Shown in pieces: positions 13,633-50,807 of a DNA stretch of 64,000 nt (its first letter is position 1; each line of letters starts with the position of its first letter). The stretch is taken from assembly GCA_905176665.1 (NCBI GenBank), contig CAJINA010000104.1, positions 36,699 through 100,698 on the forward strand, read 5' to 3'. Under the pieces are notes generated by a model. The model searched no databases. It was not told the origin of the DNA and was given only the letters and a program-made list of their open reading frames with translations. Source of the stretch: Olavius algarvensis Delta 4 endosymbiont (GTDB taxonomy: Bacteria; Desulfobacterota; Desulfobacteria; Desulfobacterales; CAJINA01). The position numbers and the translations under genes were made by a program.

Positions 13633-13801
13633 ATCACGTCCCGGTTTTTCTCCTGGTACTGCCCCTCCCCTTGAGCAATATGGTTAGCCCCAATTTTCCT
13701 GTAAGGAATTTGGCCAGTAACTGACAAAATTAATAGAAGCTATTAACTCATATCGTAAGTCACTGCCTATGACTGCAGCGGCTCACGGAAATGGGGGTCC
13801 C

Positions 13802-14452
13802 ATGAAAACCAAACTAAAAAGAAAATGGATCTTGTTCGTGATCCTGTTTGCCTTCGCAGGCCTGCTGCTGGTGTCCCAGTCATCCGGGACGGCCGCCCTG
13901 AAAGAAGGTGAAAAAACATATATTGTCGATCAAACCGGCGAGCGCTGGAACATCACCCAGGCGGTATCCCTGGGGTTCAATCCGCGCTATTTTGAATTCG
14001 GCATCGGGCGCAATGCGTTCACGCCCCTGGGGGAGGACAACTGGCAGGAAAGCCCGGTGGACGAATATTCCCAGATGCGGGTTATCGGCATAACCGGCAA
14101 CGGTGAGGCCCACGCCTATTCCATAGCGAAACTCTGGTCACACGAAACCGCCAATACCCATTTGGGTTCCCAGCCGATCGTCGCCGGCTACTGACCGCTT
14201 GTCAATCTGGCGGCTGTGTACAGCCGCGAAATCGATGGACAGGCGCTCACGCTGGCGCCCTCGGGGTGGACCTATCGGCGCACGTTTGTGCTCTATGACA
14301 AGGAAACCGGCACGCTCTGGTATCCGGATAGGGGCAGCCTGATGGGCATCCAGGGCAAGCATTTCAAGCGGCGGCTGCCCATGTTGGAGTCGACCGACAC
14401 CAAGTTCAATAAATGGGTAAAGGAGAATCCAGCGACCAAGTTGATGAAGTAG
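13802..14452 (+). CDS. DUF3179-family secreted protein, predicted selenoprotein (in-frame UGA at 14192-14194 read as Sec)
   Basis: ORFs 13769-14194 and 14216-14452 are in the same frame, separated only by TGA. Joined translation ...VIGITGNGEAHAY...SQPIVAGY-U-PLVNLAAVYSREIDGQALTLAPSG...VLYDKETGTLW matches the DUF3179 core (…AVTYCPLC…DGxxLTF…YDRETxSLW) with Sec at the first Cys of YCPLC. Stem-loop 15 nt downstream of the UGA. Confidence 0.7.
14207..14228 (+). other. SECIS-like stem-loop downstream of the DUF3179 UGA
   Basis: ggcggctg-tgta-cagccgc: 7-bp stem, 4-nt G/U-containing loop, starting 15 nt 3' of the UGA. Confidence 0.5.
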
Positions 14453-33345: not shown

Positions 33346-33615
33346 TCATTCGGAATACTTTTTCCACAGGTGCCCATAAGCGCCGTTTTGCTTGATCCGA
33401 TCCAAGGAAGTCTGGAGTTTATTCACAAGAACATCCTCAGTTTTGCGGTTCACCGCCAGGTAATAATCATAGCGGTCATCCAGCAGGATCGTTTTCACTA
33501 CAAGATATTTTGAGGTAGTTGCTTTAAGGTGCGCCGGGTAATTCTCAGCGAGATTGTTTCCCTTAATTTTATCTATTTCGGAAATAGTCCCTGAGCACGC
33601 CCTTGACCAGATCAC
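33346..33615 (-). pseudogene. Relic C-terminal fragment of a solute-binding protein family 3 (amino-acid ABC substrate-binding) gene
   Basis: 89-aa ORF ...YYLAVNRKTEDVLVNKLQTSLDRIKQNGAYGHLWKKYSE matches only the C-terminal about 60 aa of SBP_bac_3 proteins. No N-terminal domain. Overlaps the 3' end of the caspase-like gene. Confidence 0.4.
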
Positions 33616-35278
33616 CGATCACTCCACCGGCTGTATAGTGATTGCCCCGGGCTTTTTTCTTATAGACCTTGGCATTTTCCGTATCATACAGAAATACCGT
33701 GCAACTTTCTTTAATGCTTATCCCTACATCGATGTCAACCAGAACAACCAGATTCGCGCCGACCTGAAGGCCGATGTCACGCACGGTTTTCAAGTCCGGT
33801 TCCAATTTCGAGAACATGTTCTTGCGCTTCCAAAGATTGGGGCTGTTGTGTTTTTCAAATATGCGCGGCTGCGTCAGTTCCACGGGAATGCTATCGGACG
33901 TTTCATATGAGTATTGCAAGGCAACCCGTTCATCACGGTCCAGGGTGGAAACGATCCCCTCCAGGGCGCTACTTTCCACGTTCTTGAGCCAGGCCTCCAG
34001 GTTCGCCTCAGCGGTATAAATGTTGGGGGGCAGGATTGCCAACCGGTAAGCTTCACGGGCGACCCTGCGTGAATTTGTGGTTTGAGGCGAAAGAGCTGCC
34101 TGGAGGCTACTTGCTGTAGCGGTTTTTTCAGCGGTCTTCCTCTTGCGCTCCATCTCCTCCATTTGGGCCTGCAATTTGGCATACTCGATTTCCTGCTTTT
34201 GTTGTTCCAGCTTGAGCTTTTCCAGTTCAATGGTTTTCTGCTGGGCCAGCTGTTCCTTCTCCAGGGCCAGTTTCTGTTTTTCCATTTCAAAACGCTGGCG
34301 TTGGAGTTCCAGTTCAGCCTGGGCCACGGTGGCCTGCTGCCGGGCCCGGTTCTGCTGCTGCCGCTGTGCTTCCAGGGCGACGTGTTTACGGGCATGCTCC
34401 GCGGCCCAGGCCGTGTTGTAAAGCACGAACTGACCGTCCTGGTCCATGGGCGTCTTCAAGCGCCCCACGTTGGGCCGCTGGTCTCCGATCTCGGTCACCT
34501 TGGTCCAGACCCGGGTGTGGAACAGGTTTTCCAGGTCGATCACCTCGCGGTCGTTCTTGCGCAGGGCATCGATCAGGTAAAAGGCAAACAGGCTGTGGCC
34601 TTCGGCGCCGCCGTCCGCCACCGGCTCCACCCCGCCCGACGAGATCACCTGGCGACTGCGCAAGGAGGCTTTCTGGACCAGCTTTTCCTTATAGCGGCGG
34701 TCGTTTAAAGACATCAGCGAGGGACCGCCGCGCAGCATGGACCCGCTGTAGCAGGAGTCGGCAATGACCACCACGTTCTTGGTCTGCAGTTTTTCCGAGC
34801 TGAGCACCGCCTTGATGTAGGAGTTGGCCACCCAGGTCCCGGGGTTTTTCAGGGCACCTTCGGCCGGCACCCAGTAGCCGTCGCCGGTAAAGTCGTCCAA
34901 CTGGCCGTGGCCGGCATAATAGACGAACAGGTTGTCGTGCGCGCCCATGGACTGGGCCAGGTAGCGCAGGTCCTGGATAATCTGCAGGCGGCTGGCCTGG
35001 CGGTCGGTGCGCAGGATGACACTGTCGGGTTTGAACCCGTAGCGGCCGACCAGGGTCTCTTTGATGACCGTGGCGTCCTTTACAGCCGTCTTGAGTCGCG
35101 GCCATTTGGCATAGTCATTTATGCCGATGATCAGGGCGTGGTAGGCACCCCAGGAACCGGACGCTCCGGATTGCGGGACGATGGCCAGGCCGCGCTGTGT
35201 GGATTGAGCTAAAACGGGATGATTGAGAAGAAAAAACAGGGATACTGAAAGGGTCAGAATAAGCCGTTTCAAAAGCAA
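33569..35278 (-). CDS. Secreted caspase-like (peptidase C14/orthocaspase) protein with Q/E/K-rich coiled-coil linker and C-terminal CsgG/LpoB-like(?) domain, paralog 1
   Basis: Signal peptide. HALIIGINDY...YYAGHGQL (His)...VIADSCYSGS (Cys) dyad. Long ELQRQRFEMEKQKLALEKEQL coiled coil. C-terminal about 170-aa domain shared with the paralogs. Confidence 0.85.
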   Translation of the reverse strand: MLLKRLILTLSVSLFFLLNHPVLAQSTQRGLAIVPQSGASGSWGAYHALIIGINDYAKWPRLKTAVKDATVIKETLVGRYGFKPDSVILRTDRQASRLQIIQDLRYLAQSMGAHDNLFVYYAGHGQLDDFTGDGYWVPAEGALKNPGTWVANSYIKAVLSSEKLQTKNVVVIADSCYSGSMLRGGPSLMSLNDRRYKEKLVQKASLRSRQVISSGGVEPVADGGAEGHSLFAFYLIDALRKNDREVIDLENLFHTRVWTKVTEIGDQRPNVGRLKTPMDQDGQFVLYNTAWAAEHARKHVALEAQRQQQNRARQQATVAQAELELQRQRFEMEKQKLALEKEQLAQQKTIELEKLKLEQQKQEIEYAKLQAQMEEMERKRKTAEKTATASSLQAALSPQTTNSRRVAREAYRLAILPPNIYTAEANLEAWLKNVESSALEGIVSTLDRDERVALQYSYETSDSIPVELTQPRIFEKHNSPNLWKRKNMFSKLEPDLKTVRDIGLQVGANLVVLVDIDVGISIKESCTVFLYDTENAKVYKKKARGNHYTAGGVIGDLVKGVLRDYFRNR

Positions 35279-35616
35279 CCTCCAGCCAAGGGAACCATCA
35301 AATGTAGTCTCAATTGAAATGGGTCTGCGGATGCTAATATAGTTTCAAAATAAAGGCAAGTGTGGGCGCTCATGTATCCAATTATCCGTAAACGTTCTTT
35401 GTCAGCCAAGTCAGATGGATTGCTTGAGGTGCCTATTGGCAATGACGATGGACCAAATATCTTAAATTGGAACACTTAAAATGGCTGGCTCATTACTTTG
35501 AAGGCAGGTTTTTAGGAAGCACGATTTTGAGGTAACAATGATGCAATCGGCAGGTAATACAATTAGAAGATAGTTAACCAATGGCCAGTCGATTCTTTAA
35601 AGCCAGGCATCCGATA

Positions 35617-37311
35617 TCATTGGTTCTTAAAATAGTCTTTCATAAGGCTGCGTACATAACCCTCAACGCTGTTAGGATATGCAAGCCAGGCGGGCCTGAA
35701 ATTTTTAGAGTAAATCTTTGCCTTAGCTAAGTCATATAAATAGAAGGTAAAACTTCCGGGATAGATTTCACCTTCTATCATCAAAACAAGATCCACGTCA
35801 ATTTTCAGATTGAGTTTATTAACTTCTTCCCAATCCGGCTTCAATCTGGAGAATATCGATTTCTTTTTCCATACATCATTTTTCGTAATATCACTTAGAA
35901 TTGTTACGCCTTCCGTAAAGTCCTCAAATTCTTCGTAACCATGGGTTAATTTTAATCTATCATCATCAAACGTTACATTGGCGACTGCTTGTATGCTGGC
36001 CAATTGATAACTACGCAGATATCTATCATCATTCGTGGAAGCATATAAATTCTGAGGTAATATCGCCAATTTGTATTCTTCTCGGGAAGCTTTCCGGTTT
36101 AACGCTCCGGGTTGATTTTTTACGGGAGGAGATACTGCCGCGACCATTTGCTGGCCAACCGGCGGGGCGGTTTCTTGAGGTTTGCGCTTCATATCTTCCA
36201 GTCGCGCCTGCAGCTTGGCATATTCGATCTCCTGTTTTTGCTGTTCCAACTTGAGCTTTTCCAGTTCGATGGTTTTCTGCTGAGCCAACTGCTCTTTTCC
36301 CAATGCCAGCTTTTGCTTTTCAATCTCAAAGCGCTGGCGCTGTAGCTCCAGTTCAGCCTGGGCCACCGCGGCCTGCTTTCAGGTCCGGTCCTGCTGCTGC
36401 CGCTCGGCTTCCAAAGCCGTGTGCTTCCGGGCGTGCTCCGCGGCCCAGGCCGTGTTGTAAAGCACGAACTGACCGTCCTGGTCCATGGGCGTCTTCAAAC
36501 GCCCCACGTTGGGCCGCTGGTCGCCGATCTCGGTCACCTTGGTCCAGACCCGGGTGTGGAACAGGTTTTCCAGGTCGATCACCTCGCGGTCGTTCTTGCG
36601 CAGAGCATCGATCAGGTAGTAGGCAAACAGGCTGTGGCCCTCGGCGCCGCCGTCCGCCACCGGCTCCACCCCACCCGACGAGATGACCTGACGCGAACGC
36701 AGAGATGCTTTCTGGACCAGCTTTTCCTTGTAGCGGCGGTCGTTTAGCGACATCAACGACGGTCCGCCTCTCAGCATGGAACCGCTGTAGCAAGAGTCGG
36801 CAATGACCACCACGTTCTTGGCCTGCAGTTTTTCCGAGCTGAGCACCGCGTTGATGTAGGAGTTGGCCACCCAGGTCCCGGGGTTTTTCAGGGCACCTTC
36901 GGCCGGTACCCAGTAACCGTCGCCGGTAAAGTCGTCCAACTGGCCGTGGCCGGCATAATAGACGAACAGGTTGTCGTGCACGCCCATGGACTGGGCCAGG
37001 TACCGCAGGTCTTCGATGATCTGCAGGCGGCTGGCTTTACGGTCGGTACGCAGGATGACGTTATCAGGTTGAAATCCGTAGCGGGAGATAAGAGTCTCTT
37101 TGATAACCGTGGCATCCTTCACTGCGGTCTGCAGCCGCGGCCACTTGGCATAGTCATTTATGCCGATGATCAGGGCGTGGTAGTCACCCCAGGAACCGGA
37201 CGCACCGGATTGCGGGGCGATGGCCAGGCCGCGCTGTGGGGATTGAGCTAAAACAGGATGATTGAGAAGAAAAAGCAGGAATACCAATAAGGTAAGAATT
37301 CTCAAATGCAA
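35617..37311 (-). pseudogene. Caspase-like (C14) paralog 2 interrupted by an in-frame TGA (36379-36381); otherwise the same architecture
   Basis: ORFs 36379-37311 and 35617-36366 are collinear with paralog 1. The TGA AAG replaces the CGG CAG (Arg-Gln) of the paralog inside the coiled coil. No SECIS-like hairpin follows. Confidence 0.6.
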
Positions 37312-45382: not shown

Positions 45383-45875
45383 CTAAGGCCCTCCCCAAGG
45401 TCGCGTTTGCAGGCCTTTGCACTTGGGTGGCTAACGAATCCGGATAGTTCAATGCAATGGAAGGTAGGTCGATTTCAGTACCGGATAGGTGGCATTATAC
45501 ATGAATCAATAAAATTTACAGCATAATTGAGACCGCTGTGGTCATCCTGATAAAAATGATTGCTAAACAGTGTCTGGTCTTCATTGAACCGACCGGTTGC
45601 AGCTCTAAAAAATCAGCAGCCCGATCACATCAGGATAAATGAGAAACATGAACTTATCAAAGCGATAGCTATTACTACGGGGAATGTATGCATCAAACGC
45701 TGGGCTTTAGAGGGACGGGTAAATCGATTGGGCTGAAAGGCAGTCGCCTGGCCATCAACCGGGGGGCAGCATGTCTGCTACCTGGCAGGCCAAATCCCCA
45801 GTTTATGAACTCAGGGGGCAAGTTTCCTAAAGGACCCGGCATTAAGATGTTCACCACCATCACCTTTTCGGGCGC

Positions 45876-46304
45876 CTATTTGGCCGTTGTCGGATAGTCT
45901 GCCTCGATCCATTCATCCCAGCCGCCCTTGAGGGCATAAACGTTGTTGTAACCCTGCTCGACTAAATTGAACGCCACACTGGCGCTCGTCTGTTCCCTGG
46001 CTCAGTCGCAACACAACACAATCATCTGGTGCTTGGGGTACTTGTGGATCCAGGAGCCGACTTCCATCGGCTCTTCGCGCACGGCGCCGGCAATCAGGCG
46101 ATCACTCTTTTTCCAGTTTGGGCCATACCGGACATCAATAATGCTGACGGCCGGCTCGCCTAGCTTTTGTTTGAGCTCTTCCTTGGTTATCCTGGGTATG
46201 TGCTCCACCTGTTTGATGGATTTGATACGGTGGTGACAGCCGAAAACGAATACGAGGACGAGCAGGAAGCTTATGCGCAAGACTGCTTTTCGATAATTTC
46301 GCAT
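45876..46304 (-). CDS. Periplasmic single-domain rhodanese, predicted selenoprotein (UGA at 46002-46004 read as Sec; C-x-U active-site loop)
   Basis: ORF 46002-46400 ends IVLCCD at TGA. The frame continues AREQTSASVAFNLVEQGYNNVYALKGGWDEWIEADYPTTAK* to TAG at 45876, completing a rhodanese fold. Signal peptide from ATG 46304. SECIS-like hairpin 13 nt after the UGA. Confidence 0.7.
45969..45987 (-). other. SECIS-like stem-loop (rhodanese 1)
   Basis: Minus-strand gagcgcc-agtgt-ggcgttc, 7-bp stem with one G-U pair, 13-14 nt 3' of the UGA. Confidence 0.5.
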
Positions 46305-46326
46305 AACAATTCCTCGGCAATAAGTT

Positions 46327-46737
46327 TCATTTCTTTTCAGTGGGGTACCCGGCCAGCACCCAGGCATCCCAGCCCCCCTTGAGCGCAAAGACTTGCTCAA
46401 ATCCCAGTTCCTTCAACCGGAGCACCACACTGGCGCTCGTGTATTCGCTGGGTCAGGCGCAGTAGATGACATAGGTGTTCTGTTTGGGCGATTTCGTAGC
46501 CCACGCGCTGACGTTGTGGGGGTCCTTGCGAACAGCGCCGGCAATCTTGCGGTCGCTGCCACGCCAATCCGAAACCCTGCGTACGTCAATCACTGTAAGA
46601 TCCTGTTGATTGAGCATCGCGTTCAACTCGGCGGGTTCTATTCTAAGGGAATCATCGGATGCATAAGCGCCTGCGGACAGAGACAGAATCAAGGCACTGA
46701 GAAACAGTATTTTTAAAAGTGTGCGAGAATATTTCAT
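46327..46737 (-). CDS. Periplasmic single-domain rhodanese, predicted selenoprotein (UGA at 46453-46455 read as Sec), tandem paralog
   Basis: ORF 46453-46737 ends VIYCA at TGA. The frame continues PSEYTSASVVLRLKELGFEQVFALKGGWDAWVLAGYPTEKK* to TGA at 46327. Signal peptide. Same hairpin GAGCGCC-AGUGU-GGUGCUC downstream. Confidence 0.7.
46420..46438 (-). other. SECIS-like stem-loop (rhodanese 2)
   Basis: Minus-strand gagcgcc-agtgt-ggtgctc, 7-bp stem, 13-14 nt 3' of the UGA. The nucleotide block around the UGA is nearly identical between the two paralogs. Confidence 0.5.
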
Positions 46738-47281
46738 TTCAACTCACTTTCCCCGGAAAGGATTCCGCTGCACCCTCAGCCAGCCTGATAAATAGGGCTG
46801 TTCAGCCAACACCCGGAAGAAGTCTGGCGTTGTTTGCCTGGCGCCGGGAAAACCTTTGATCACAGATAGATAGGGCGCAGCATCCTGTAAATAGAGTTAT
46901 ACTCCTTTGCAGCATGTCAAGGCGGCGGCGCGACAAATCAGCCTGCCCGGAGGTGGGCAAGGGCCCACCAGATGTGCCTATCTCGATCTAAATATCCGAC
47001 TGTACTGAATTAATCTGTACCCTCGCCACAGCAGTGAGTCGAAAACGGCCGCTTGACAGCGTGTTCGGGAGAGACGGATTCGCACAATGACATTGATAAA
47101 TTCTATTTAAAAAATTTTTTATATAGATTTTATCTATGATTGGGTGCTATAGTACGTATTCAAAAACCCCACCGGCAAACGGGTCTGAAAACTGCCGGGG
47201 CATTTTTGCTACGTTCAGGTGGCGACGCAAGTTATGTACACAAACGCTTGCCACCGGCGACTTTAGTGGGCATCACGAAAA

Positions 47282-48058
47282 ATGGAAACTTATCTGTTAA
47301 TTGGCTGCATAGGCATTTTTACAGGTTTTACATCGGGACTGCTTGGCATTGGTGGGGGCATCGTCATGGCGCCCCTGCTTCTGTTTTTACCGCCACTATT
47401 CGGCCTGGAACCCTATACCATGCGGATTGTAGCCGGGCTTACCATTGTGATGGGACTATTAGGCTGCCTCTCCGGGGGATTAACCCACCGCAAGTTCGAC
47501 TACGTGTCAACCCGACTTTCCGTTTATATGGGGATCAGTATTTTCATTGCCGCGTTTGTGGGCGGGGCCGCGACGCAATTTATCGCCAACGAGATTCTCC
47601 TGTTCATTTTCGCCAGCATGGCCTTTGCAGCTGCGATTTTGATGTTTGCACCGCTCAACCATGATGTGGAAAACCCGGATACCGCCGCCCTTGTGTTTCG
47701 CAAATCCCGGGCCGTGACGGCAGCCACCGGGGTGGGTCTTTTCGGCGGCCTGGTTGGCCAGGGGGGGTCATTTATTTTGATTCCCCTGATGACGAACTAC
47801 GTCAATATTCCTACCCGCATCGCGATCGGCAGTAATCTGGCTGTCGTCTTTTTATCATCGTTGGCGGCTTTTATCGGCAAGGCCGTTACCGGACAAATCG
47901 AGTGGCTTTTATCCACCCCGATTTTACTGACAGTGCTCCCGGCCGCATCCCTCGGTGGCCATGTCAGCCGCAGGGTCCCGATAAAATGGCTTAGAAGAAT
48001 TCTGGCCGTCCTAATCGCACTGGCCGCTATCCGTATGTGGTATTCCCTCGTGATTTGA
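47282..48058 (+). CDS. TauE/SafE (TSUP, DUF81) family sulfite/anion exporter-type permease
   Basis: 258 aa, 7-8 TM, duplicated GIGGGIVMAPLL / GGSFILIPLM motifs typical of TSUP. Confidence 0.8.
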   Translation: METYLLIGCIGIFTGFTSGLLGIGGGIVMAPLLLFLPPLFGLEPYTMRIVAGLTIVMGLLGCLSGGLTHRKFDYVSTRLSVYMGISIFIAAFVGGAATQFIANEILLFIFASMAFAAAILMFAPLNHDVENPDTAALVFRKSRAVTAATGVGLFGGLVGQGGSFILIPLMTNYVNIPTRIAIGSNLAVVFLSSLAAFIGKAVTGQIEWLLSTPILLTVLPAASLGGHVSRRVPIKWLRRILAVLIALAAIRMWYSLVI

Positions 48059-48245
48059 GATCAGTGAACAAAATTGCATCCTCAAAATCCAGTTTTCGCT
48101 CTACGCGCAGGCTCGAAAGGCAAAGCGGTCTTGTATATCAAATGTGGAGGGACACTGATAGTATTTTGAAGATTTGCTGCCTGCGCCCGACGCCGAGTTT
48201 TAGCCAAGAGAGTTGATTGCGATTGATACCAAGGAGGAAGAAGGA

Positions 48246-48563
48246 ATGAAGATAGCAATGGTCCTGTGCCAGGAAAACGTCGAGGTCATTTGGAACGCCT
48301 TCCGGTTGGCCAATATGATGTTGGAAGGCATGGAAGACGTCAGCATTTTTTTAAATGGTCCGGCTGTTGAATATGAAAAGATGGATTCCGTGACTTTCCC
48401 CCTGCTTGAGTTGGCCAAGGCATTCACCCTTTCCGAAGGAGCGCTTTTTGCCTGAGGGAAGCTAATGGACCTTCACGGTGTGAAGGAAGGTCACCACAAG
48501 AGAGGGACCCAGAAAGTTCTCTACGACTTGATCAAAGAGAGCGATAAGATTTTGGCTTTCTAG
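48246..48563 (+). CDS. DsrE/DsrF-like small sulfur-relay-fold protein, predicted selenoprotein (UGA at 48453-48455 read as Sec)
   Basis: ORF 48213-48455 (MKIAMVLCQENVEVIWNAFRLANMMLEGMEDVSIFLNGPAVEY...GALFA) stops at TGA. The frame continues GKLMDLHGVKEGHHKRGTQKVLYDLIKESDKILAF* to TAG at 48561-48563. Strong SD aaggagga before ATG 48246. Hairpin 15 nt after the UGA. Confidence 0.6.
48470..48486 (+). other. SECIS-like stem-loop (DsrE-like gene)
   Basis: ccttca-cggtg-tgaagg, 6-bp stem, GGUG loop, 15 nt 3' of the UGA. Confidence 0.45.
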
Positions 48564-48660
48564 CCTGTACTAGACATGGATGATTTGAAGTGCAGGCAGG
48601 CCACCGGCAATCAACTTTCAGTGAACCACTCAAAGGCCTTTGTCGCCTTCACCGGCCGAA

Positions 48661-48960
48661 CTAACTTTTCACCACCAGAACCACCAGGTCATCCAATGCC
48701 TGTATCCCGCGGGCTTCATTCGCATTAATGTGGACGTATTCGTGCGGCCCCAGTTCAATTTCCTCTTCTCCATGCGTAAAGATTCCTTTTCCCTGAATGA
48801 CCATGAAAAAGACGGCATGCCCGCCCCGGTGGGGCGGAATGGTCACCCCTTTTCCCAAAGCAATGCGCACCAGAGCAAAATGCTCCTGTTTTAAAATTGG
48901 TGTCTTAATGGGACCATCTATGGAGAAGGTCAACTTTTCAAGTAAGTTATTTGTTTGCAT
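48661..48960 (-). CDS. Cupin-fold small protein
   Basis: 99 aa, PPHRGGHAVFFMVIQGKG...HEYVHINANE two-motif cupin pattern. Confidence 0.7.
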   Translation of the reverse strand: MQTNNLLEKLTFSIDGPIKTPILKQEHFALVRIALGKGVTIPPHRGGHAVFFMVIQGKGIFTHGEEEIELGPHEYVHINANEARGIQALDDLVVLVVKS

Positions 48961-49070
48961 GCTGCCTCGATGGTAGAATCAAGAGAGTTACGGTAAAGAT
49001 TTGTCTGAATTTTCAAGTAAACATCTAAAGATAGGCAACCGATATGTGGCCGGTGAAGCAATGCGACACT

Positions 49071-50807
49071 CTACAAGCTACGTTTGTATTTTTCCAGAAG
49101 CTTGGTAGTATATTTGTCAACCAAATTACCAACGCCGAACCAGGCGCGGGCGCGTATTTTTTCGTTATACATTTTTCCGGTTCTGGCATTATAGACCAGG
49201 ATAGTGACTGTTACGCCGTCAGAGTCGGCGTGAATCTTTATTAAAGCAGCGATATCCATATCCAGCTTCCGGCAGACTTTTCTGATCTGCTCCAAGTCCG
49301 GTTCCGGTTTTGAAAGAAAGGATTTCTTTTTCCAGACGGCAAGTTCTTTTTTGTCGATTTTCTCCGCCAAGGGTGTGATTGTCTCGGGCAAATCGCTGGT
49401 AATTTTGTATGATGCCGCGAATTCAACTGCGTCACTTTTTCCGGTAGCCAGGTACACGCCCTGTATGGCTGCCGCTTCAAAGTTAGCCAGACCCCCGGTG
49501 GCCGATTCGATCACATTTATCGGAAAGAGTGCCAGCTTATAGCGTTCCCGGAAGACGGGGCGCTCGGATTGCAAACTTTTATCTACCGCGGCTAACTGCG
49601 TTTGCTGTTGGGAAAGTTGAGTTTGCTGCTTGGTAAGCTGAGTTCGCTGATCGGCCAATTTGCGGTCGTTCTCCAATTTATCCAGACGCGCCTGCATTTT
49701 GGCATACGCGATCTCCTGTTTTTCCCTTTCCAGCTTGAGCCGTTCCATCTCAAGGCTTTTCTGTTGGGCCAGTTTATCCCTCTCCAGGGCAAGTTTCTGT
49801 TTCTCCATCTGGATACGCTGGCGCTGGAGTTCCAATTCCGCCGATGCGACCGCGGCTTTCTGGCGGGCTTGCTCTTCTTTTTTGGCGGCCGCCTGGGCAG
49901 TTGCTTGGGCAGCCGCTTGCTTGCGGGCCTGCTTTTCAGCCCAGGCCGCGTTGTAAAGCACGAATTGGCCATCCTGGTCCATCGGGATTTTTAAACGGCC
50001 CACGTTGGGTCGTTGGTCGCCGATCTGGGTCACCTTCTCCCACACCCGTGTATGAAAGAGGTTTTCCAGGTCGATGACTTCACGGTCGTTGGTTTTCAGG
50101 GCATTGATGAGGTAGTAAGCAAACAGGCTGTGGCCGTCGGCCCCGCCGTCGGCAACCGGCTCGACGCCGCCCGAAGAGATGACCTGGCGAGATCGCAGGG
50201 CGGCCTTCTGGGCCAGCTTTTCCTTGTAGCGCCGATCTTCCAGGGACATCAAAGACGGCCCGCCGCGCAGCATGGAACCGCTGTAGCAGGAGTCGGCAAT
50301 AACAACCACATTTTTGGCCTGTAATTTTTCGGAACTCAGGACCGCCTTGATATAGGAATTGGCAACCCACGTGGCCGGGTCTTTCAGGGCGCCCTCGGCC
50401 GGCACCCAGTAGCCGTCGCCGGTGAAATCAGCCAATTGCCCGTGACCGGCAAAGTAGACGAGCAGGTTGTCGTTCTGACTCATGGATACAGCCAGATACC
50501 GCAGGTCACCAGTAATCCTGATTCGGTTGGCATCCCGGTCTGTGCGCAGGATGACATTCTGCGGGTTAAAACCGTAATTGGTGATCAGGGTATCCCGGAT
50601 AACGGTGGCGTCTTTCACCGCGGTTTGGAGGCGGGGCCACTTGGCATAATCGTTTATACCGATGATAAGGGCGTAGTACGTACCCCAGGAACCGGCGTTT
50701 ACTTGGGTGGGTGCCACAGCCAGTCCCCTTTGCGGGGATTGGGCCATTGCGGGCGGCACCAGAACTATCAAGGCAAGTACCAGGAAAGGCAGAATTGTCC
50801 GTTTCAA
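49071..50807 (-). CDS. Secreted caspase-like (peptidase C14) protein with coiled-coil linker and shared C-terminal domain, paralog 3
   Basis: Signal peptide. YALIIGINDY...YFAGHGQL...VIADSCYSGS. Q/E/K coiled coil. C-terminal RERYKLALFP...WKKKSFLSKPEPDLEQ...LVYNARTGKMYNEK homologous to paralogs 1 and 2. Confidence 0.85.
   Translation of the reverse strand: MKRTILPFLVLALIVLVPPAMAQSPQRGLAVAPTQVNAGSWGTYYALIIGINDYAKWPRLQTAVKDATVIRDTLITNYGFNPQNVILRTDRDANRIRITGDLRYLAVSMSQNDNLLVYFAGHGQLADFTGDGYWVPAEGALKDPATWVANSYIKAVLSSEKLQAKNVVVIADSCYSGSMLRGGPSLMSLEDRRYKEKLAQKAALRSRQVISSGGVEPVADGGADGHSLFAYYLINALKTNDREVIDLENLFHTRVWEKVTQIGDQRPNVGRLKIPMDQDGQFVLYNAAWAEKQARKQAAAQATAQAAAKKEEQARQKAAVASAELELQRQRIQMEKQKLALERDKLAQQKSLEMERLKLEREKQEIAYAKMQARLDKLENDRKLADQRTQLTKQQTQLSQQQTQLAAVDKSLQSERPVFRERYKLALFPINVIESATGGLANFEAAAIQGVYLATGKSDAVEFAASYKITSDLPETITPLAEKIDKKELAVWKKKSFLSKPEPDLEQIRKVCRKLDMDIAALIKIHADSDGVTVTILVYNARTGKMYNEKIRARAWFGVGNLVDKYTTKLLEKYKRSL

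Follow-up and report, generated by a model that had tools for sequence, protein, structure and literature searches.

A very probable stand-alone DsrE/YchN-fold selenoprotein in the Olavius algarvensis Delta 4 endosymbiont and the lineage-specific neighbourhood of its gene

A DsrE-like selenoprotein family was described in the Sargasso Sea analysis (Zhang, Fomenko & Gladyshev 2005) as Pfam02635 with the motif UxxC, where U is selenocysteine (Sec). Members also appear in Zhang & Gladyshev 2006 and 2007, the family is listed for Desulfovibrio vulgaris, and a 2026 review (PMC13188914) enters the family as PF02635, UxxC. Here, we compare with these systems a gene at positions 48246-48563 of a stretch of 64,000 nt from the Olavius algarvensis Delta 4 endosymbiont (contig CAJINA010000104.1, positions 36,699 to 100,698; the whole stretch is called the window below). 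The gene very probably encodes a stand-alone 105-aa selenoprotein of the DsrE/YchN fold, with Sec70 inserted through a selenocysteine insertion sequence (SECIS), which belongs to the known family and is not part of a conserved operon. Table 1 of PMC1976440 (2007) assigns one DsrE-like and two rhodanese-related sulfurtransferase selenoproteins to delta 4, and the window carries exactly these numbers of DsrE-like and rhodanese-related genes. The window gene may be the DsrE-like entry of 2007, an identification based on the matching counts only. The same locus recurs unchanged in many metagenome contigs. Neither the family of the gene nor the selenoproteome of the organism, in print since 2007, is new. 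An earlier interpretation of the stretch, made without database searches (the sequence-only reading), had noted that DsrE-like and rhodanese-like selenoproteins were reported from Deltaproteobacteria and marine metagenomes; the DsrE-like family has indeed been in print since 2005.

The window protein resembles the published family in being a small PF02635-type protein with Sec in place of a conserved Cys and a bacterial SECIS after the UGA, and the family likewise occurs mainly in Deltaproteobacteria, including Olavius symbionts. The difference lies in the motif, which is UxxC in the published family and U-G-K-L in the window protein. DsrEFH and TusBCD, from the same Pfam family, are heterohexamers encoded by dsrEFH or tusBCD operons with TusA or DsrC as partners, and in DsrE and TusD a single active-site Cys holds the persulfide. 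This Cys serves as the mechanistic model for the window protein; however, the window gene is solitary, shorter and without a conserved partner gene, since neither a paralogous DsrE-fold gene nor a recurrent partner was found in 31 neighbourhoods. A DsrC-domain gene lies upstream at one locus, L002 (loci are numbered L and protein entries P throughout).

Reading frame, UGA codon and hairpin

The elements of the gene are as follows.

48246..48563, plus strand: DsrE/YchN-fold selenoprotein gene (very probable assignment); 105 codons, Sec at codon 70, stop TAG at 48561-48563
48231..48237, plus strand: ribosome-binding site AAGGAGG, read from the sequence, 8 nt before the ATG at 48246
48453..48455, plus strand: in-frame UGA, assigned as Sec70 in the motif A-U-G-K-L from homologue codons and the Cys alignment
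48470..48486, plus strand: SECIS-like hairpin with stem CCUUCAC / GUGAAGG and loop GGU, based on the fold, synonymous entropy and pairing counts

The sequence-only reading had pointed to an 80-aa open reading frame (ORF) at 48213-48455 that stops at TGA, and had continued it for 35 codons to a TAG to give a protein of about 105 aa. The TTG-started ORF is present as listed; the ATG at 48246 is the likelier start, and we prefer it because AAGGAGG stands at the proper place ahead of it. From this ATG the frame runs through 69 codons, the TGA, 35 further in-frame codons and the TAG, so the translated product has 105 aa and reads MKIAMVLCQ...EGALFA-U-GKLMDLHGVKEGHHKRGTQKVLYDLIKESDKILAF. No signal peptide is visible by eye, and the protein is a cytoplasmic, single-domain product of a solitary gene. 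Across 31 homologue loci, the only recurrent upstream element is an AAGGAG-type motif, the ribosome-binding site, and no conserved upstream element was found beyond it.

A homologue search over 5.8 billion proteins returned 340 relatives of the DsrE-like protein. Most of them are exactly 69 residues long, i.e. they were ended at the same codon, and about ten are full-length at 105 aa. Position 70 is Cys in three of the full-length relatives (P0001, P0002 and P0011) and Trp in the remainder, with Trp at the Sec position in entries P0003-P0009, P0012, P0013 and P0085. On the DNA, the position-70 codon is TGC in P0001, TGT in P0011 and TGA in P0009 (L003); the Trp of this last entry, the one checked, appears to be TGA translated under table 4. 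Public databases therefore list the window gene and hundreds of homologues as fragments of 69 residues ('hypothetical' or 'DsrE'), and a few others with Trp at the UGA, which amounts to systematic mis-annotation; the correct product of the window gene would be the 105-residue selenoprotein.

A scan of one genome per species yielded 34 DsrE-like loci. In all 28 loci L004-L031, whose hosts include Desulfosarcina, Desulfobacula, Desulfotignum, Desulfobulbus, Dissulfuribacterales and Thermodesulfatator, codon 70 is TGA and is followed by a conserved in-frame tail (consensus GKLMDLHGVKEGYHKRxTQKxLYDLIKESDKxxxF) with the stop at the matching place. When the window and L003 are counted with these 28 genome loci, TGA occupies codon 70 in 30 of 32 close homologue loci, and the other two have TGC (L001) and TGT (L002). 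The corresponding figure for the 31 aligned homologue sequences is 29/31, again with TGC and TGT in the other two. In these aligned sequences the amino acids of the 35-aa tail are conserved while synonymous sites are near saturation, showing that the tail is translated and under purifying selection. At L032 (6001-6311) the frame is disrupted in the DsrE-like N-terminal part by a frameshift or an assembly error; this is the only apparent pseudogene among the 34 loci.

More distant relatives show which residue the UGA replaces. A HMMER pass over 1.84 billion cluster representatives gave 285 relatives, most of about 106 aa, and distant relatives carry A-C-G-T-C at the aligned position (CGTC in 48, CGSC in 10 and CGKC in 4). 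Nearly all of 101 full-length representatives at 50% identity have Cys at the UGA position, and Cys70 is one of only two invariant columns in a 63-sequence alignment. The column was expected to hold Cys or Sec in homologues, which is what the TGC and TGT codons of L001 and L002 and the Cys of more than 100 distant relatives display. We are highly confident that UGA70 is decoded as selenocysteine.

The hairpin begins 14 nt after the UGA, within the codons that specify D-L-H-G-V-K-E. Its arms, CCUUCAC (48470-48476) and GUGAAGG (48480-48486), enclose a GGU loop (48477-48479); the structure can be drawn with 7 bp around these 3 nt or, just as well, with 6 bp around CGGUG. The sequence-only reading had recognized a real hairpin but drawn it inexactly, as a 6-bp stem with a GGUG loop 15 nt after the TGA. 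Synonymous entropy is approximately 0-0.6 bit at the stem codons 75-77 (GAC CTT CAC) and 79-81 (GTG AAG GAA), compared with 1.5 bits at the loop codon 78 (GGN) and approximately 1-2.5 bits at most degenerate codons elsewhere. For example, His77 is CAC in 31/31 sequences, and His84 is CAC in 18 and CAT in 11. When the 7-bp stem is imposed on the 30 TGA-bearing sequences, 99.5% of cells are paired; one stem pair changes from U-A to C-G in four of the 30, a compensatory replacement, and other pairs pass through G-U. A slid 3' arm, used as the control, gives just 45-60% pairing. The distant Cys relatives L033-L035 do not have this hairpin. An Rfam scan of 45500-49200 gave no match.

Fold, active site and proposed chemistry

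Among the 63 aligned family members, 62 match PF02635 (DsrE) at E<=0.01, with a best E value of 2.5e-14. The family profile matches Escherichia coli YchN (1jx7) with an E value of 9.6e-9, and Cys70 is placed opposite the first Cys of LCKTC. An AlphaFold2 model based on the 63-sequence alignment has a predicted local distance difference test (pLDDT) value of 98.2 and a pTM of 0.90; it replaced a run with a 10-sequence alignment that was unusable (pLDDT 53.7). In a Foldseek comparison of this model with the PDB, 1jx7 shows the highest TMq value of 0.86, followed by the DsrE/DsrF-like structures 3mc3, 3pnx and 2qs7 and then by 2fb6 (BT1422, a protein of unknown function). The top six matches span TMq values of 0.67-0.86, and each of them is YchN, a DsrE/DsrF-like protein or a related protein from structural genomics. 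That the joined protein has the DsrE/YchN fold is virtually certain, in keeping with the DsrE/DsrF-like features that had been noticed in the joined ORF.

The model shares the same alpha/beta fold with YchN, 3mc3, 3pnx, 2qs7 and 2fb6 over the whole length, and YchN has its conserved Cys at the same strand-to-helix junction. However, sequence identity to YchN and the DsrE/DsrF-like structures is at most approximately 20%, these proteins have Cys and not Sec, and their functions are unknown too; the motif is CKTC in YchN and UGKL in the window protein. Residue 70 ends the strand 66-70 and opens the helix 71-76. The tail contributes this helix, the strand 85-87, the helix 89-98 and the strand 101-104. 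Since the tail supplies this helix-strand-helix-strand unit, the fold would be out of reach for a product of 69 residues.

The motif itself separates the window protein from the published family. In the window protein and the Desulfobacterales clade around it the motif is U-G-K-L, in which the second Cys of UxxC is missing; this Cys is present in the deeper-branching orthologues L026, L027 and L030 (U-G-K-C) and in L036, a more distant sequence (U-G-V-C). The window gene thus falls into a derived subclade, without the second Cys, of the same homologous family. Cys8 is not invariant among the 31 aligned homologues. With U-G-K-L and no other invariant Cys, Sec is the sole conserved redox residue in the Desulfobacterales clade.

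These features bear on how the protein could work. SelB with Sec-tRNA would read UGA70, aided by the hairpin. The selenol at the strand-helix junction would then act as a nucleophile, taking up a sulfane sulfur or selenium atom and handing it on; alternatively, it could form an intermolecular selenenyl-sulfide with a partner. The second Cys is gone from this clade, so that obligatory cycling through a UxxC couple within the molecule is improbable; this loss argues for single-selenol carrier chemistry over an intramolecular redox couple. The main alternative to a carrier is a thiol/selenol oxidoreductase, the role assumed in the selenoproteome papers. By analogy with the single-Cys carriers, we regard sulfur or selenium carrier chemistry as plausible, with a likelihood slightly short of even.

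The selenoprotein assignment was weighed against a true stop and against a changed genetic code. A true stop would leave a truncated 69-aa DsrE-like fragment followed by an unrelated 32-aa ORF, or a pseudogene, and it agrees with gene callers, which end nearly all database entries at the TGA, and with a hairpin of unexceptional energy. However, the TGA is kept in 30 loci of different genera in front of the selected in-frame tail, Cys codons occupy the position in orthologues and distant relatives, the fold needs the tail, and the sole disrupted locus, L032, looks quite different; a true stop is therefore very improbable. Reading of TGA as Trp or Gly under an alternative code would fit the W at position 70 in P0003-P0009, but the entry checked on the DNA has TGA and apparently owes its Trp to the table 4 translation of its source pipeline, the true sense-codon homologues have Cys and never Trp, and the Desulfobacterota lineage uses the standard code. 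Moreover, TGA ends 10 of the 33 long ORFs in the window, TauE among them, so it is not generally reassigned in this genome. The probability of an alternative code is close to nil. Split genes were also considered for the locus and were rejected along with the alternative code and the pseudogene.

Several points nevertheless weigh against the selenoprotein assignment or its parts. A search of the 64-kb window for tRNA-Sec, selA, selB and selD found none of them, and we infer the decoding machinery from publications, in which the organism is described as Sec-decoding, and from the remaining selenoprotein genes of the window, which contains four selenoprotein-type genes. The folding energy of the post-UGA hairpin is no better than that of shuffled sequence (z values of -0.02 for 76 nt and -0.71), so its significance comes from the comparison across homologues only. 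The Cys orthologues L001 (1479-1481) and L002 (1618-1620) still keep the hairpin, L002 in a CUC...GAG version, which could fit either a recent Sec-to-Cys change that left a 'fossil' SECIS or a partial coding constraint from LHGVK/E. The window protein itself scores 15.9 bits against PF02635, below the gathering score of 22.7 (P0001 reaches 20.5 bits), and an NCBIfam scan of the protein gave no covering model and one spurious UlaR match only. The AlphaFold2 model was built on P0001, the Cys70 form with 80% identity, and not on the window protein. Lastly, the putative carrier mechanism is borrowed from DsrE/TusD and their single active Cys.

Neighbouring genes and conservation of the locus

The genes around the DsrE-like gene are listed below.

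45876..46304, minus strand: rhodanese-related selenoprotein 2, motif CCD-U, TGA at 46002-46004; NF041203, 148.9 bits
46327..46737, minus strand: rhodanese-related selenoprotein 1, motif YCA-U, TGA at 46453-46455; NF041203, 148.7 bits
47282..48058, plus strand: TauE/SafE (TSUP) permease, 258 aa, ordinary TGA stop; PF01925, E value 4e-40
48064..48634, no strand assigned: lineage-specific segment with the DsrE-like gene and its flanks, absent at the same site in syntenic relatives
48661..48960, minus strand: Cupin_2 protein, 99 aa, convergent with the DsrE-like gene; PF07883, E value 2e-7

The gene inventory of the sequence-only reading was accurate, with two Sec-rhodaneses and a TSUP permease upstream and a cupin downstream. 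Both rhodaneses, on the minus strand, have an in-frame TGA and exceed the curated cutoff of 115 bits for NF041203 (rhodanese_LYCAU; 'form 3, CxU' in PMC13188914). They share the C-x-U motif, the SECIS hairpin and scores of approximately 149 bits with this family, and no difference from it was found, so they are ordinary members. In rhodanese 1, an 8-bp hairpin GAGCGCCA-GUG-UGGUGCUC lies at 46420-46438, 14 nt after the UGA, and in rhodanese 2 the hairpin GAGCGCCA-GUG-UGGCGUUC lies at 45969-45987; both can be written as an 8-bp GAGCGCCA-GUG-UGGYGYUC 14 nt past the UGA. These near-identical SECIS stems suggest a tandem duplication. The two rhodaneses are independent members of another known selenoprotein family.

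The N-termini of both rhodaneses are hydrophobic by eye, signal-peptide-like in rhodanese 1 (...SAGAYA/SDD) and lipoprotein-like in rhodanese 2 (...VFVFGC). From these N-termini, both would be exported selenoproteins. The cupin protein has the same sequence as CAD7841170.1 from the Olavius algarvensis Delta 4 endosymbiont.

From this inventory, the sequence-only reading had proposed a selenium-dependent sulfur-trafficking locus. In such a locus, all five genes, the cupin included, would function together: the periplasmic rhodaneses would load sulfur, TauE would move an oxyanion and the DsrE-like protein would relay sulfur in the cytoplasm. The arrangement is compact, with five genes within 3.1 kb, three of them with Sec, and TauE is followed on its own strand, after 187 nt, by the DsrE-like gene; in the promoter and terminator scan, counts were not above those of shuffled sequence and no terminator-like site was found between these two genes. 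Rhodanese and DsrE folds are also both sulfur-carrier folds, as in the TusA/DsrE/rhodanese relay. However, the rhodaneses are divergently transcribed and the cupin is convergent, and the proposal does not hold when other genomes are compared. When 36 DsrE-like loci, with at most 6 kb on each side, were searched by tblastn for the binding protein, the caspase-like protein, the cupin, TauE and the two rhodaneses, no homologue was found. For TauE, the rhodaneses and the cupin, this negative result covers 33 loci that encode the DsrE-like protein besides the window. The neighbour families of DsrE-like loci are essentially random: clustering of neighbour ORFs gave no recurrent family save promiscuous regulators and ABC ATPases, and the 109 nearest neighbour ORFs match 165 Pfam families, of which the most frequent, PqiA, occurs in four ORFs; TauE, rhodanese and cupin are absent from the recurrent ones. 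A search for selD near DsrE-like loci gave a single weak, distant and opposite-strand match (L010).

The syntenic relatives give the same answer from the other side. In the closest of them (L044, L049 and L050), TauE is 82-84% and the binding protein 85-90% identical, and the kinase, the binding protein, the two rhodaneses, TauE, the cupin and MaoC are all kept, but there is no DsrE-like gene. When the window interval 47900-49100 was compared with these three loci by blastn, only the TauE end and the cupin side matched, and the slot of 48064-48634 is taken by an unrelated 124-aa minus-strand ORF (L044 4857-5231) with no Pfam match. The site between TauE and the cupin therefore appears to be a small variable region. 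The cupin adjoins TauE only in these near relatives, and a rhodanese adjoins TauE in only three closely related loci of the 84 TauE loci. We conclude that the rhodanese/TauE/DsrE/cupin arrangement is specific to this lineage, and that the DsrE-like gene is solitary, in a lineage-specific variable slot and not in a conserved operon. One co-functioning locus is accordingly improbable.

The TauE permease and selD

A different association was found for the permease alone. TauE orthologues at 56-86% identity include many in Thermodesulfobacteriota, and in two metagenome-assembled genomes (MAGs) TauE starts a few bases after the stop of a gene with the N-terminus ARTCG-UGA-AAKIGP, which is SelD by TIGR00476 (348 bits; cutoff 125). 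We counted this linkage in those orthologue loci, from metagenomes and MAGs, that extend 1.1 kb or more upstream of TauE (n=56). A full-length, same-strand selD ends within 233 nt of TauE, mostly at approximately 10 nt, in 40 of these 56 loci, and when loci are clustered at 90% identity, selD is directly upstream of TauE in 27 of 37 clusters. A neighbour-joining tree places the TauE of the window and its rhodanese-linked relatives inside the selD-linked clade; however, the window TauE is not adjacent to selD. No mention of a TauE/TSUP-selD link was found in the searchable literature.

Gene order and the tree suggest that this TauE orthologue group is a candidate selenium-linked permease, possibly new. 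The closest described arrangement is that of YedE/YedF (FdhT/FdhU), where a membrane protein gene also lies beside selD and selenium transport has been proposed. It differs in that the permease here is a TauE/SafE protein (PF01925) and not YedE. YedF contains a DsrE-like domain with CGxC, and the YedF model TIGR03527 gave no match to the DsrE-like protein of the window.

The linkage opens a reading of the neighbourhood as selenium-handling, in which TauE derives from a selD-coupled permease and was relocated beside exported Sec-rhodaneses, possible perselenide or persulfide carriers; the DsrE-like gene would have landed later and may or may not take part. The selD gene upstream of most TauE loci and the position of the window TauE within the selD-linked clade argue for it, and a rhodanese, according to work by Ogasawara et al., reportedly carries selenium as perselenide and delivers it to SelD in vitro. 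On the other hand, the window TauE has no selD beside it, adjacency does not identify a substrate, TSUP proteins are annotated as sulfite or organosulfonate exporters, and rhodanese-TauE adjacency is confined to close relatives and may reflect recent common ancestry. We consider this reading possible but doubtful. The stronger form of the idea is held just as tentatively and is on the unlikely side: TauE would be an undescribed selenium-linked transporter, YedE-like in concept, that was uncoupled from selD in gutless-worm symbionts and stands beside two exported Sec-rhodaneses, and with the gained Sec-only (UxxL) DsrE-like protein it would form a lineage-specific module for selenium/sulfur hand-over. 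The TauE-selD linkage does not rescue the idea of one locus, because the rhodanese and DsrE-like genes are absent beside TauE outside the symbiont lineage. For the solitary selenoprotein gene, the preferred reading, the biological gain is small, since the family has been known since 2005 and the selenoproteome since 2007, and the genes of the cluster do not form a conserved unit. Possible novelty is confined to the UxxL subclade and the linkage of selD with TauE; the selD-coupled TauE group is a testable candidate for a selenium transporter in sulfate reducers.

Elsewhere in the window, a DUF3179 protein (PF11376, 97 bits) at 13769-14452 on the plus strand is a further selenoprotein candidate, with TGA at 14192-14194 in AGY-U-PLVN and a strong hairpin GCGGCUGU-GU-ACAGCCGC approximately 16 nt past the TGA; DUF3179 is a listed selenoprotein family. 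Three caspase-like (Peptidase_C14) paralogues with 57-60% identity and long coiled-coil tails are encoded on the minus strand at 33569-35278, 35563-37311 and 49071-50807. An in-frame TGA interrupts the coiled-coil part of the middle copy and may be a real stop, the mark of a pseudogene or something else. Genes for a CHAT-domain protein and an ankyrin-repeat protein lie near these paralogues.

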